The notes under the pieces are model-generated. The model saw nothing but the letters and a program-made list of their open reading frames with translations. It was not told where the DNA came from and made no database searches. Positions 12,446 to 41,834 of a stretch of DNA of 64,000 nucleotides are shown here, in pieces; within the stretch, counting starts at the first letter, position 1, and every line of letters begins with the position of its first letter. The translations under genes and the position numbers were made by a program. Source of the DNA: Escherichia phage vB_EcoM_G9062; sequence record NC_054920.1; one strand, 5' to 3'.

Positions 12446-12915
12446 TTTAAACTCTTTCTAAGCTGCTTCTTAAATGAAGCTATTAACTGTGTTTTGGTGT
12501 CAGATTCATTATATTCAAATCCTCTTTGAAGCATCTCGGCCATCATTTCCTCTTTTCCTAAACGAGAAAATTCCTTTGATTTATCTCCAACAAAGTTAGG
12601 GTGAATATTATTTTGGGTGTAATCGGATTTTAAATAAGTAAGTAAATTTTCTAACCATTCAAGATAATCAACACCTTGTCCCTTTAAGCCAGAACGATTA
12701 AATTTATGCTTCATTTGACCTTCTGCGGCATTGCAGAGATTACAAAGCAATCCACGTATCTTTCCTGCTTTTGGTCCATTTAATTCATGGTCATGATCAA
12801 GATGATTAGCTTGAACATCAGGATTTAGTTCTCGTTGGCAAATTAAACATTTACCGTTTTGTGCATCATAAAATTTCTGTTTTTCTTCTTTATATAATTT
12901 GCCAGTCAATAACAT
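12442..12915 (-). CDS. 49: endonuclease VII (Holliday junction resolvase)
   Basis: 157 aa; MLLTGKLYKEEKQKFYDAQNGKCLICQREL... with His/Cys zinc motif matches my recollection of T4 endo VII. Confidence 0.85.
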   Translation of the reverse strand: MLLTGKLYKEEKQKFYDAQNGKCLICQRELNPDVQANHLDHDHELNGPKAGKIRGLLCNLCNAAEGQMKHKFNRSGLKGQGVDYLEWLENLLTYLKSDYTQNNIHPNFVGDKSKEFSRLGKEEMMAEMLQRGFEYNESDTKTQLIASFKKQLRKSLK

Positions 12916-27063: not shown

Positions 27064-27072
27064 ATCACCTTC

Positions 27073-27258
27073 TTAAAGCATATTCACATAAGCTATTAAT
27101 TCGTTTTCTTTCTTATCAAACCGATCAGCAAATTCTTCTTGCTGTTCGGGAGATAGCGGGCCGTATTCATCATAAAAGGTGTTTGCTTCTGTATGCTCAT
27201 CTAGAAGTTCATGGATAAGCTCAAACAATTTATCTTTTTGTTCTTTACTCAGACTCAT
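27073..27258 (-). CDS. hypothetical acidic protein (61 aa)
   Basis: small ORF upstream of tk. Confidence 0.35.
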   Translation of the reverse strand: MSLSKEQKDKLFELIHELLDEHTEANTFYDEYGPLSPEQQEEFADRFDKKENELIAYVNML

Positions 27259-27424
27259 ATATTAATTTCCAGGAGTTTTAAAATAATTCGCTTTTGCTTA
27301 AATATTTCCATAGTTAAATGACCAGTATCTTTTTGACCGATTCCAATGGCAAAACCTTTATTGACAGCGAGTTCAATTAAATTATCAAGCTCACGTAACA
27401 CTTCATACTGTAACTCAAAACTAT

Positions 27425-27637
27425 TCATTTCGGTTTACCTTCTTTAACGAAATCTGGATAAGGATAAAATCCCGAATAAAATCCTTCACCTTTATGATTG
27501 ATGCATCCTTTATTAGAACAATAGCACCAATAATCGAAATCACAAGCCATTTCATCGTTGCATAAAGCAAAAACAACTGGCCATTTACACTTTTCACAAT
27601 GGGCATTTTTAAGAATACTAGTTTGGCTCATAACCAT
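27425..27637 (-). CDS. cysteine-rich small protein (70 aa)
   Basis: eight Cys including HCEKCKW and CYCSNKGC, suggesting a metal-binding fold. Confidence 0.35.
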   Translation of the reverse strand: MVMSQTSILKNAHCEKCKWPVVFALCNDEMACDFDYWCYCSNKGCINHKGEGFYSGFYPYPDFVKEGKPK

Positions 27638-27855
27638 GTAACCTTTAAGCAGTATTCTTCTACATGCTGTTTACGACCTTTCTTATCAATAAAGGTATAT
27701 TCAACGAATGTTCCAATGTAGTCTTTATCTACATCATGCGGACTATTAATTGGACATTTAGTACGGCAAATGCGTTCCCATTGACGAATAATTACTGCCT
27801 TATTCTTTGGGTCATATGGATGTGGATAATGTATATTCATAATAACGGTTCCCAA
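27628..27855 (-). CDS. hypothetical protein (75 aa)
   Basis: small ORF. Confidence 0.3.
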   Translation of the reverse strand: MGTVIMNIHYPHPYDPKNKAVIIRQWERICRTKCPINSPHDVDKDYIGTFVEYTFIDKKGRKQHVEEYCLKVTWL

Positions 27856-28304
27856 TCAACAATCACAATTTCTAATTTAGAGGAATATGTATCTAAAATC
27901 CCCTCAATAATATCCCAGTTCCCTTTACCTATGCCTGCACCAATCCTAGGCATATAGATTGTAGGTTTAATCAGTTTATTTTCACCAAACTCATTTAATT
28001 CTAACATACAATTCATTAAAGCGGAATACTCAAAATTTGGCCCTGGTTGAAATTGAGTATAAAGGTTGAAGCAATACGCTTTATGAGTCCTAAAATATTT
28101 TTCATAGACTGAGTAAGAACCGAGTTTAGTTACATCACCCCATTCAGTCTGTAATTTATCAGCTTCCAAAATTTTAGGGAAAGCTTTGGTTAATTGACCC
28201 GCTACGCCTGAACCCATAGTATGAAAACAATTGCATCCATGCGCAATATTTTTACCTTCAGCGAAAAGGGCGACAATATCGCCCTTGATATATTTTACAA
28301 TCAT
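27837..28304 (-). CDS. macro-domain-like protein (ADP-ribose binding/processing), 155 aa
   Basis: KGDIV...IAHGCNCFHTMGSGVAGQL and PRIGAGIGKGNW resemble the two conserved glycine-rich loops of macro domains. Confidence 0.45.
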   Translation of the reverse strand: MIVKYIKGDIVALFAEGKNIAHGCNCFHTMGSGVAGQLTKAFPKILEADKLQTEWGDVTKLGSYSVYEKYFRTHKAYCFNLYTQFQPGPNFEYSALMNCMLELNEFGENKLIKPTIYMPRIGAGIGKGNWDIIEGILDTYSSKLEIVIVDWEPLL

Positions 28305-28642
28305 CTAGTACTCAATCCTCGATTATAAGAATCTACCAAACGGTCAACCATTGAATGACAAGCGGCTTTATCTTTCTCCTCCGCAACTGAACATTCTAAG
28401 GTATTCCACTTTTTAGCATATCGTTTTAATAATGTATCGTTTTTGTATCTGCTTGATTTATCTCTTTCTCCGTCTTTATATGCATATATTAATTTCTGCG
28501 CAAATTCAGCTTGGCATGCTTTATTTTTCCCACAATAATCTGCCGCAGTGCGATTTACATATTCTCTAATTTCAGTATATGATGTATCTGCTAACGCAGA
28601 AAATGAAATTAATCCTATACATAAAACCAAAATTTTAGTCAT
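28301..28642 (-). CDS. secreted/periplasmic small protein (113 aa)
   Basis: N-terminal signal peptide MTKILVLCIGLISFSALA; four Cys. Confidence 0.4.
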   Translation of the reverse strand: MTKILVLCIGLISFSALADTSYTEIREYVNRTAADYCGKNKACQAEFAQKLIYAYKDGERDKSSRYKNDTLLKRYAKKWNTLECSVAEEKDKAACHSMVDRLVDSYNRGLSTR

Positions 28643-29180
28643 TTACTATTTCCAAAAGTTTATTATTTTTAAGGTAATTAGCCTTTTCTAGGACTTCAGA
28701 AGCATATTTAGAACCTGCTTTAACATTCCATCCCGAATTATAAGATGATATTGCTTTTCTTATATCGCCCTTATGTATATTTAACCAATAAGAAAGTTCA
28801 ATGTACGCCCAGGAAGCTGAATTGGATCGTTTATTCAACATTCTTTTTATTTCAGCATCGGTCATATTATAACCAAGTTCCTTAACTCTTGCTCGCATAG
28901 TAGGCAAATAATTTTGGAACATTCCATAAGCGTGATGCTTTGGTTTAGATTTTAAATTAACTCCGCCAGAGCTTTCTTGCCATAAAATAGCAGCCATTAT
29001 ATGACCTAATCCGCTCTTGTGGATATTTTTGTGTGTTTTATATTTTCCATCCTTAGAAAATTGTTCCCCGAATTGATACGCGTAACGCATGTTATCGAGT
29101 TGGACATTACTGAAAGTATGCTCGGAGCTATGTGCCATCATTGAAATGGCCAATAGACCAGCGAGTAGTGCTTTTCTCAT
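28635..29180 (-). CDS. secreted lytic transglycosylase-like protein (SLT domain), 181 aa
   Basis: signal peptide MRKALLAGLLAISMMAHS; catalytic-type motif WQESSGG, then YGMFQ and SSYNSGW. Confidence 0.5.
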   Translation of the reverse strand: MRKALLAGLLAISMMAHSSEHTFSNVQLDNMRYAYQFGEQFSKDGKYKTHKNIHKSGLGHIMAAILWQESSGGVNLKSKPKHHAYGMFQNYLPTMRARVKELGYNMTDAEIKRMLNKRSNSASWAYIELSYWLNIHKGDIRKAISSYNSGWNVKAGSKYASEVLEKANYLKNNKLLEIVND

Positions 29181-29676: not shown

Positions 29677-29706
29677 ATTATACCACAGTCAAGAGGAAAA
29701 GTAAAC
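29677..29706 (-). promoter_or_regulatory. early promoter of regB (minus strand GTTTAC, 18-nt spacer, TATAAT)
   Basis: plus gtaaac 29701-29706, attata 29677-29682; AGAGGAGA RBS then ATG. Confidence 0.55.
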
Positions 29707-37564: not shown

Positions 37565-37876
37565 TTGCGGCAACCTTGTCGGGGTTCCACCTGCTAAGGC
37601 AAGTGTTTGTACGAAACGCCGGGATTCGAACCCGGTTATTAAGCAGTTGACGCTACTCAATATTTTTTAAAAGGCCATATCTCGACCATATCCGAACGTT
37701 CCGTCAAAAACGCTACTCGGCTTACGGCAAAGATATTTCCTCGAATCGATAATTCGGTGCGCCGTTTCTGCTGTGATATAAGGGGACATTAACAAAACAT
37801 AAAGATTTATTAATACCAGTCCTTAAACAGGGAACATCAGTCCGACGACTTGCCGGTAGCGACCCGGCTTCTTGTC
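37565..37876 (-). ncRNA. candidate stable RNAs downstream of tRNA-Arg (position of T4 RNA species 1/2)
   Basis: about 310 nt non-coding between tRNA-Arg and the terminator; contains a tRNA T-arm-like CCGGGTTCGAATCCCGG (37618-37640 rc); synteny with T4 rnaC/rnaD. Confidence 0.35.
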
Positions 37877-37952
37877 TGGTCGAGGCAGTAGGGATCGAAC
37901 CTACGACCCAGGACTTAGAAGGTCCTTGCTCTTCCTTCTGAGCTATGCCTCG
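37877..37952 (-). tRNA. tRNA-Arg (anticodon TCT)
   Basis: cloverleaf with acceptor CGAGGCA/TGCCTCG, anticodon loop CTTCTAA, T-loop GGTTCGATCC, encoded CCA. Confidence 0.85.
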
Positions 37953-37956
37953 TATT

Positions 37957-38031
37957 TGGCGGACGTGATAGGATTCGAACCTATAACCAATCGCTTAACA
38001 GGCGATCGCTCTGCCATTGAGCTACACATCC
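37957..38031 (-). tRNA. tRNA-Asn (anticodon GTT)
   Basis: acceptor GGATGTG/CACGTCC, anticodon loop CTGTTAA, T-loop GGTTCGAATCC, encoded CCA. Confidence 0.8.
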
Positions 38032-38035
38032 AAAT

Positions 38036-38122
38036 TGGTGGGGAGTGGTGGAGTCGAACCACCCGAGTCGCAATGACAATGAATTTACAGTCCACACCGC
38101 TACCTCTACGGGATAACTCCCC
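38036..38122 (-). tRNA. tRNA-Tyr (anticodon GTA), type II with long variable arm
   Basis: acceptor GGGGAGT/ACTCCCC, anticodon loop CTGTAAA, T-loop GGTTCGACTCC, 87 nt with CCA. Confidence 0.75.
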
Positions 38123-38131
38123 AAATTAATT

Positions 38132-38206
38132 TGGTGGCCCTGGGTGGAATTGAACCACCATCTGGCGATTATGAGTCGCTTGCTTGAACCTTCCAGCTAC
38201 AGGGCC
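38132..38206 (-). tRNA. tRNA with CAT anticodon (probably tRNA-Ile, lysidine type; alternatively Met)
   Basis: acceptor GGCCCTG/CAGGGCC, anticodon loop CTCATAA, T-loop GGTTCAATTCC; sits where T4 has tRNA-Ile. Confidence 0.6.
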
Positions 38207-38207
38207 T

Positions 38208-38283
38208 TGGTGCTGATTGACGGAATCGAACCGCCGATCTTCTCATTACAAGTGAGTTGCTCTACCTACTGAGCTAAATCAGC
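38208..38283 (-). tRNA. tRNA-Thr (anticodon TGT)
   Basis: acceptor GCTGATT/AATCAGC, anticodon loop CTTGTAA, encoded CCA. Confidence 0.85.
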
Positions 38284-38288
38284 AAAAC

Positions 38289-38378
38289 TGGCGGAGGCGA
38301 TAGGATTTGAACCTATGAGTCGCCGGAGCGACTGCCGGTTTTCAAGACCGGTGCATTAAACCACTCTGCCACGCCTCC
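38289..38378 (-). tRNA. tRNA-Ser (anticodon TGA), type II
   Basis: acceptor GGAGGCG/CGCCTCC, anticodon loop CTTGAAA, long variable arm, encoded CCA. Confidence 0.85.
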
Positions 38379-38380
38379 AG

Positions 38381-38454
38381 TCTCCGTGGCAGGATTTGAA
38401 CCTACGACATTCTGCTCCCAAAGCAGACGCTCTACCAAACTGGGCTACACGGAG
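38381..38454 (-). tRNA. tRNA-Pro (anticodon TGG)
   Basis: acceptor CTCCGTG/CACGGAG, anticodon loop TTTGGGA, T-loop GGTTCAAATCC; CCA not encoded. Confidence 0.8.
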
Positions 38455-38463
38455 TAAATTAAA

Positions 38464-38538
<75 letters not shown>

Positions 38539-38543
38539 AAATT

Positions 38544-38630
38544 TGGTGCGAGAAGTGGGACTCGAACCCACAAGGAAATCATTCCGCAGCATTTTAAGTG
38601 CTGTGCCTTTACCAATTTGGCCATTCTCGC
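38544..38630 (-). tRNA. tRNA-Leu (anticodon TAA), type II
   Basis: GCGAGAATGGCCAAATTGGTAAAGGCACAGCACTTAAAATGCTG... matches my recollection of T4 tRNA-Leu. Confidence 0.85.
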
Positions 38631-38631
38631 G

Positions 38632-38704
38632 CTGGGAATAAAGGACTCGAACCTTTGCATCCTGGAATCAAAATCCAGTGCCTTACCAACTTGGCTAATT
38701 CCCA
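38632..38704 (-). tRNA. tRNA-Gln (anticodon TTG)
   Basis: acceptor TGGGAAT/ATTCCCA, anticodon loop TTTTGAT, T-loop GGTTCGAGTCC; 1-nt spacer to tRNA-Leu. Confidence 0.8.
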
Positions 38705-41785: not shown

Positions 41786-41834
41786 ATGTTTCTCCTCAAA
41801 TTTAGTTAAGATTATAACACATGAAACTGAAGCA

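Follow-up and report, generated by a model that had tools for sequence, protein, structure and literature searches.

Tk.4 of a T4-related coliphage: a stand-alone macro domain with a predicted glutamine-type active site and a probable role against DarTG2

When a phage encodes a small protein with two glycine-rich loops arranged like the ADP-ribose-binding loops of macro domains, the question arises whether it serves to undo ADP-ribosylation by the host, and if so, on which substrate and by what chemistry. This question is raised by one open reading frame (ORF) of Escherichia phage vB_EcoM_G9062 (NC_054920.1), of which a stretch of 64,000 nucleotides (hereafter, the window) was analyzed. The ORF, at 27837..28304, starts with ATG, has the N-terminus MIVKYIKGD, and encodes 155 amino acids that comprise one macro domain and no other domain. 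A first-pass annotation of the same DNA had described it as a macro-domain-like protein, and had offered two roles for it, namely the reversal of host ADP-ribosylating defences or the tuning of the phage’s own ADP-ribosyltransferases. The ORF and its two glycine-rich loops were confirmed by translation, in which GCNCFHTMGSGVAGQL corresponds to residues 23-38 and PRIGAGIGKGNW to residues 119-130; the strand, which had been left unstated, is the minus strand, since the plus-strand translation of 27837..28304 is broken by stops. In what follows, we document that the ORF is tk.4 of the T4-type phages, lately renamed adfM (anti-DarT factor macrodomain), and argue that its product is most likely an orphan antitoxin that hydrolyses thymidine-ADP-ribose on phage DNA and thereby protects it from DarTG2.

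Identity and fold of the protein

The window protein was found to be identical to Tk.4 of phage T4 (NP_049723) in 155 of 155 residues, and the gene differs from that of the T4 reference (NC_000866) by seven synonymous and no non-synonymous substitutions. The gene order is also as in T4, i.e., tk, small ORFs, tk.3, tk.4, vs, vs.1, regB ... denV, and the ORF is orthologous to T4 tk.4. Its G+C content (35.0%) is close to that of the whole window (34.9%). The phage is a sibling of T4 and not T4 itself, the identity being ~96-97% across the flanking genes, and the best matches of the window (98.8% over 24 kb) were to other Tequatrovirus records. The gene was already annotated, and its function already assigned in print: the T4 reference record labels Tk.4 as "phosphatase; contains A1pp phosphatase motif", and many other GenBank records as "macro domain protein" or "Poa1p-like family protein with Macro domain".

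The first-pass annotation had named two results that would speak against a macro domain, namely, no match to the Macro profile or a predicted fold unrelated to macro domains. With the Pfam Macro profile (PF01661), a match of 27.7 bits was obtained against a gathering cut-off of 22 bits, covering profile positions 2-113 of 118, and Tk.4 also matched PHROG 335 with an E value of 1e-65. A sequence search of solved structures retrieved BT1257 first (1e-9), then yeast Poa1p, SCO6735, DarG, and human TARG1. The best match in the defence library of PADLOC was the DarG model (E = 1.3e-9, profile positions 2-145 of 329), and the sole match in NCBIfam was likewise DarG (NF048014; 30.3 bits, profile positions 2-146 of 338). 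For the structure, an AlphaFold2 model was built on an alignment of 67 homologous sequences, which reached a predicted local distance difference test score (pLDDT) of 94.6 and a predicted template modeling score (pTM) of 0.90, and showed the three-layer alpha/beta/alpha macro fold; it replaced a single-sequence model that was set aside as unusable (pLDDT 38.6). When the model was compared with the PDB by Foldseek, the top matches were all macrodomains, namely TARG1, Poa1p, BT1257, and DarG, with template modeling (TM) scores of 0.7-0.8, and Tk.4 was structurally nearer to TARG1, DarG, SCO6735, and Poa1p than to MacroD, macroH2A, PARG, and the viral nsP3 macrodomains. With the profile match and the macro fold in hand, the macro-domain idea thus outlived both of the results that had been named beforehand as fatal to it. 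Overall, Tk.4 is a stand-alone macro domain of 155 amino acids, belonging to the TARG1/DarG/SCO6735 (‘ALC1-like’) class.

Active site, proposed reaction, and its rivals

Conservation was counted over 119 Tk.4 homologues with identities down to 34%, and the functional regions were located by translation and alignment, all on the minus strand. Loop 1, the substrate-binding loop, reads H22-G-C-N25-C-F-H-T-M-G-S-G33-V-A35 (28200..28241); G33 and A35 are present in all 119 sequences, N25 in 118, and H22 in 114. Loop 2, the phosphate-binding loop, reads P119-R-I-G122-A-G124-I-G126-K-G-N-W130 (27915..27950), in which P119, I121, G122, and G124 are each invariant (119/119). The resemblance of these loops to those of macro domains is, therefore, not due to chance. 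In alignments that included TARG1, BT1257, DarG, and phiKZ gp104, with the SCO6735 sequence taken from the PDB search, N25 of Tk.4 corresponds to Asn27 of SCO6735 and Asn23 of phiKZ AdfM, i.e., to the Asn on which mutagenesis has been done in SCO6735 (PMC9411070) and in phiKZ AdfM (PMC13309987); G124 corresponds to Gly128 of SCO6735, and G126 stands where TARG1 has the catalytic Asp125.

Between the two loops lies the motif N80-L-Y82-T83-Q84 (28053..28067), identified by family-profile and MAFFT alignments, in which Y82 and Q84 are invariant (119/119) and N80 is found in 118 of the 119. The position of Q84 is that of the catalytic Lys in TARG1 (K84) and DarG (K80), but of Gln85 in SCO6735. In the family-profile alignment, N-L-Y-T-Q84 of Tk.4 stood opposite Y-L-I-T-K84 of TARG1 and N-M-I-G-Q of BT1257, and in the MAFFT alignment Q84 shared its column with the lysine of the P-T-K motif in phiKZ gp104 and in the DarG proteins of M. 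tuberculosis and T. aquaticus. Judged from the sequence, the active site of Tk.4 thus appears not to be DarG-like, as an invariant Gln84 stands where DarG and TARG1 have their catalytic Lys, and this predicted Gln-type active site is what the present analysis adds to the published work. The family also has distinctive residues elsewhere: the residue of the Asp49 codon (28158..28160) is Asp in 118 homologues and Glu in one, and MAFFT showed it not to be conserved in SCO6735, BT1257, DarG, or TARG1; H22, C24, and C26 are near-invariant within the Tk.4 family.

The biological role of the T4 gene has been addressed in a preprint posted on bioRxiv in November 2025 (10.1101/2025.11.20.689424). There, a T4 transposon library was challenged on DarTG2-expressing E. 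coli, with tk.4 as the only hit to reach significance; T4 became sensitive to DarTG2 when the gene was cleanly knocked out, and it was renamed adfM. It had previously been observed that T4 without both adfA and adfN, the latter being gp30.3, a NADAR enzyme specific for guanosine-ADP-ribose, was still resistant to DarTG2, from which a further factor was predicted (PMC11825919). As the window protein is identical to T4 Tk.4, the knockout phenotype supports the suggestion of the first-pass annotation that a phage macro domain counters a host ADP-ribosylating defence, and makes it one that was already known. The papers on CmdTAC and Thoeris that mention macrodomains contained nothing on Tk.4.

The chemistry may be approached through SCO6735, which strips DarT-made thymidine-ADP-ribose from DNA faster than DarG does and rescues DarT toxicity, but is inactive on guanosine-ADP-ribose; its activity is abolished by Q85A, nearly abolished by N27S, and reduced by G128E, and the hydrolysis of thymidine-linked ADP-ribose on single-stranded DNA has been called, for the ALC1-like/TARG1-like class, the ‘unifying function’ (PMC9411070). 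The equivalent residues of Tk.4, Gln84, Asn25, and Gly124, are invariant or nearly so, which supports a thymidine-ADP-ribose hydrolase whose mechanism is Gln-positioned and water-mediated and not, as in DarG and TARG1, lysine-based. In the mechanism proposed here, the host toxin DarT2 would put ADP-ribose on thymidines of single-stranded phage DNA and so block replication; Tk.4, with the ADP-ribose lodged between the glycine-rich loops, would cleave the N-glycosidic bond between ribose and thymine, by which the DNA would be restored, with Tk.4 acting as an antitoxin without a toxin of its own. Gln84, held by Asn25, would probably set the distal ribose in place for a hydrolysis mediated by water, in the manner suggested for SCO6735. 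Hydrolysis of thymidine-ADP-ribose on DNA by Tk.4 itself is what we infer, and the residue equivalences suggest catalytic roles for Q84 and N25.

A number of considerations weigh against this proposal. The preprint itself says of an enzymatic release of ADP-ribose from the DNA only that it ‘seems likely’, the preprint is not peer-reviewed, and neither complementation nor a catalytic mutant is found in its accessible passages; a biochemical assay of Tk.4 was not found in the searchable literature. Tk.4 is also without the catalytic Lys of DarG and TARG1, and without the 5-residue-longer mobile loop with Lys89 that marks the SCO6735 subclass (DarG and TARG1 are also shorter here). This loop appears to be used by SCO6735 for DNA binding; thus, with the Lys-bearing loop missing, the DNA activity of SCO6735 cannot be transferred to Tk.4 with certainty. 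A related view, which we consider possible but rather unlikely, is that, within the TARG1/DarG class, the Tk.4 family makes up a third catalytic variety of its own, with a Gln center on a short-loop scaffold and its own invariant residues (Asp49, Tyr82, His22, Cys24, Cys26), and that it may depart from both DarG and SCO6735 in chemistry or in the range of its substrates; it may, for example, be adapted to the glucosyl-hydroxymethylcytosine DNA of T-even phages, or have an added activity on uracil-ADP-ribose RNA.

The alternatives to a thymidine-ADP-ribose hydrolase concern either the substrate or the need for catalysis. It is improbable that Tk.4 chiefly de-ADP-ribosylates proteins, whether to reverse or tune the marks made by Alt, ModA, and ModB of T4, or to undo a host defence that ADP-ribosylates proteins. 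T4 does encode three ADP-ribosyltransferases (PMC8120803), and TARG1 and SCO6735, the nearest characterized relatives of Tk.4, also hydrolyse Glu/Asp-linked protein ADP-ribose (PMC9411070); however, Alt, ModA, and ModB are members of the cholera-toxin (R-S-E) family, and the sites mapped for them are arginines (PMC8120803), whereas the TARG1/SCO6735 class is known for Glu/Asp esters (PMC9411070) and for T/U bases (PMC13036486), and not for arginine. The second role offered by the first-pass annotation, i.e., the tuning of the phage’s own ADP-ribosyltransferases, is unlikely for the same reason. Moreover, SCO6735 favours DNA over protein in direct competition (PMC9411070), and the sole condition that made tk.4 necessary in the preprint screen was DarTG2, a DNA modifier. 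If the ‘phosphatase’ label of the T4 record were taken at its word, Tk.4 would be a small-molecule enzyme, such as an ADP-ribose-1''-phosphate phosphatase, an O-acetyl-ADP-ribose deacetylase, or a degrader of ADP-ribose-derived immune signals, but the label is a homology-transferred annotation and not a test, and the turnover of small molecules would leave the DarTG2 phenotype, as reported, unexplained. To our knowledge, the RNA repair of T4 (the Pnkp/Rnl pathway) makes no Appr-1''-p, which also counts against such an enzyme, and we regard it as very improbable.

Equally improbable is a neutralization of DarTG2 that needs no catalysis, in which Tk.4 would bind DarT2 or shield the ADP-ribosylated DNA. 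There is precedent for both, in that bacterial DarG2 neutralizes DarT2 partly via a second, toxin-binding domain (PMC11825919), and some macro domains only bind (PMC9503650); nonetheless, Tk.4 matches only positions 2-146 of the 338 of the DarG profile, and such partial coverage indicates that the toxin-binding domain is missing, while the near or full invariance of the SCO6735 hydrolysis residues in the 119 homologues suggests selection for catalysis. Regarding nucleic acid substrates, the removal of uracil-linked ADP-ribose from single-stranded RNA is an activity of TARG1, DarG, and SCO6735 alike (PMC13036486), and by analogy the same reaction is plausible as a side activity of Tk.4. That uracil-linked ADP-ribosylated RNA, and not DNA, would be its main substrate is the least probable of these alternatives: the only known phenotype of tk.4 is against DarT2, a modifier of thymidine in single-stranded DNA (PMC11825919), and no uracil-ADP-ribosylating defence of E. 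coli was described in the literature on ADP-ribosylation defences covered here. CmdTAC, which defends robustly against T-even phages according to a published abstract, modifies adenine, and the modification is described as irreversible (PMC13036486).

Gene neighborhood, expression, and distribution

On the minus strand, tk.4 is tightly packed between vs and tk.3. The vs stop and the tk.4 start have four nucleotides in common in an ATGA overlap (28301..28304), which suggests translational coupling, and the tk.4 stop and the tk.3 start overlap in the same manner (27837..27840); both overlaps were seen in the sequence and recur in the T4 annotation. A Shine-Dalgarno-like GAGGA, read from the sequence, is located 11 nucleotides upstream of the tk.4 ATG (28316..28320, minus) and may function as such. 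The downstream neighbor, tk.3, is a DUF7202 protein. Upstream are vs (28301-28642) and vs.1 (28635-29180), the latter with an SLT lytic transglycosylase domain. In bioRxiv 10.1101/2025.11.20.689424, where the DarTG2 assays were done in minimal medium, no other T4 gene was as strongly conditionally essential in that medium as vs, which encodes the valyl-tRNA synthetase modifier. Within tk.4 itself, codons 7-13 contain a perfect palindromic hairpin with a 9-bp stem (AAGGGCGAUAUUGUCGCCCUU, 28266-28286), which was flagged as terminator-like on the plus strand by the terminator scan; the RNA structure at the 5' end of tk.4 was unremarkable despite this hairpin, with a folding z-score of -0.9.

Relative to T4, the window phage carries a different tk.1/tk.2 segment. 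The region 27064-27627 (minus), between tk and tk.3, had no blastn match to the tk..denV stretch of the T4 reference, and this segment is a variable cassette relative to tk.1/tk.2 of T4. It holds three small ORFs, at 27073-27258 (DUF7438), 27255-27428 (no Pfam match), and 27425-27637, the last of which is Cys-rich and matches PF23895, ‘Phage zinc binding domain’.

Upstream of regB, at 29677..29705 (minus), a consensus scan located a candidate promoter of the sigma-70 type, which reads TTTACT-17-TATAAT and has an extended TG. It is the nearest upstream promoter-like site to tk.4 and heads the regB-vs.1-vs-tk.4 gene string, and the scan for terminators revealed no minus-strand terminator-like site between the two; it is therefore plausible that tk.4 is transcribed together with regB, vs.1, and vs. 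The number of sites from the sigma-70 scan, however, does not exceed that for shuffled sequence, which makes the promoter assignment weak. As for a MotA-type middle promoter upstream of tk.4, no minus-strand match was found between 25111 and 38774. In the window, the MotA-box pattern TGCTTYA-N11-13-TANNNT occurs 16 times, as against 2.5 expected from shuffles, mostly on the minus strand (e.g., at 654-679, 12508-12533, and 41809-41834). An Rfam scan of the window returned tRNAs only. In the region 37609-38704 (minus), ARAGORN called ten tRNAs, including Asn-GTT, Tyr-GTA, and one with a CAT anticodon, of which Rfam confirmed nine; the call at 37609-37704 was ‘tRNA-???’. T4 has eight tRNAs, fewer than the ten ARAGORN calls here.

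In a tblastn search of 50,697 phage records, the sampling of which is strongly biased to coliphages, the Tk.4 type was found in 2,749 (~5%) and the phiKZ type of AdfM, described below, in 276, so that among sequenced phages the former outnumbers the latter about tenfold. No other ADP-ribose-processing domain is as common in phages as the macro domain, which 41% of myoviruses carry (PMC9503650). The ADP-ribosylation of DNA by DarT is a defence of wide occurrence. Since Tk.4-type genes are present in about 5% of these genomes, their presence should help to predict which phages overcome DarTG2 hosts, which would be useful in the choice of therapeutic phages.

Comparison with known macrodomains

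The closest catalytic likeness is to SCO6735 of Streptomyces coelicolor (PDB 5E3B) and BT1257 of Bacteroides (PDB 2FG1), in which the same Lys-to-Gln replacement is found, and whose catalytic signature is common to Tk.4, as Q85, N27, and G128 have their counterparts in Q84, N25, and G124. In contrast, 13 residues lie between this Gln and a conserved Tyr in SCO6735/BT1257, but only 8 in Tk.4 (Q84 to Y93), and HMMER placed a 6-residue insertion in BT1257. Tk.4 further differs from both in its own invariant D49 and Y82 and near-invariant H22, C24, and C26, and in being borne by a phage and not a DNA-damage-regulated chromosomal gene. Tk.4 thus combines the SCO6735/BT1257 catalytic signature with the absence of that subclass’s loop, and is not simply another SCO6735 homologue. 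In overall length and in the short loop that follows the catalytic position, it matches human TARG1/OARD1, but the Lys84/Asp125 dyad of TARG1 is replaced by Gln84/Gly126. With yeast Poa1p it has the H-x-C-N-C motif in common, and H22 aligns with Poa1p His23; the equivalent of Poa1p Ser30 in Tk.4 is uncertain, and in Poa1p a Ser takes the place of Gln84 and the C-terminal half is longer. The ‘phosphatase’ label of Tk.4 derives from the Poa1p-like ADP-ribose-1''-phosphate phosphatases.

Tk.4 was also considered as a DarG antitoxin, and this was rejected: the match of 30.3 bits falls far below the equivalog cut-off of NF048014 (250 bits), all 119 homologues have Gln84 where DarG has Lys80 (T. aquaticus), the C-terminal DarT-binding domain is absent, and the neighbors are vs and tk.3, with no adjacent darT. 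DarG of DarTG2 (PDB 5M31/5M3E/5M3I/7OMU), in contrast, has Lys80 and the DarT-binding C-terminal domain and adjoins darT. Such a lysine-type enzyme is known in phages as well, in the form of phiKZ gp104 (Cell Rep 2026, PMC13309987), a stand-alone macrodomain that is also named ‘AdfM’ and has the same target, DarTG2. It removes DarT2-made ADP-ribose from DNA in vitro and enters the phage nucleus by import (PMC13309987). The loop-1 Asn is conserved between gp104 and Tk.4, but gp104 is DarG-like, with the lysine motif F-P-T-K and a score of 91 bits to M. tuberculosis DarG. A close homology of the two AdfM proteins was rejected, as BLASTP aligned them with 21 bits over 23 residues only; they are remote relatives, with an hhalign probability of 96.6%. 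From their sequences, the two enzymes that now go by the name AdfM appear to differ in mechanism, that of T4 being Gln-type and that of phiKZ Lys-type, and inhibitors or mutational logic derived from DarG should, therefore, not be assumed to be valid for the T4 type.
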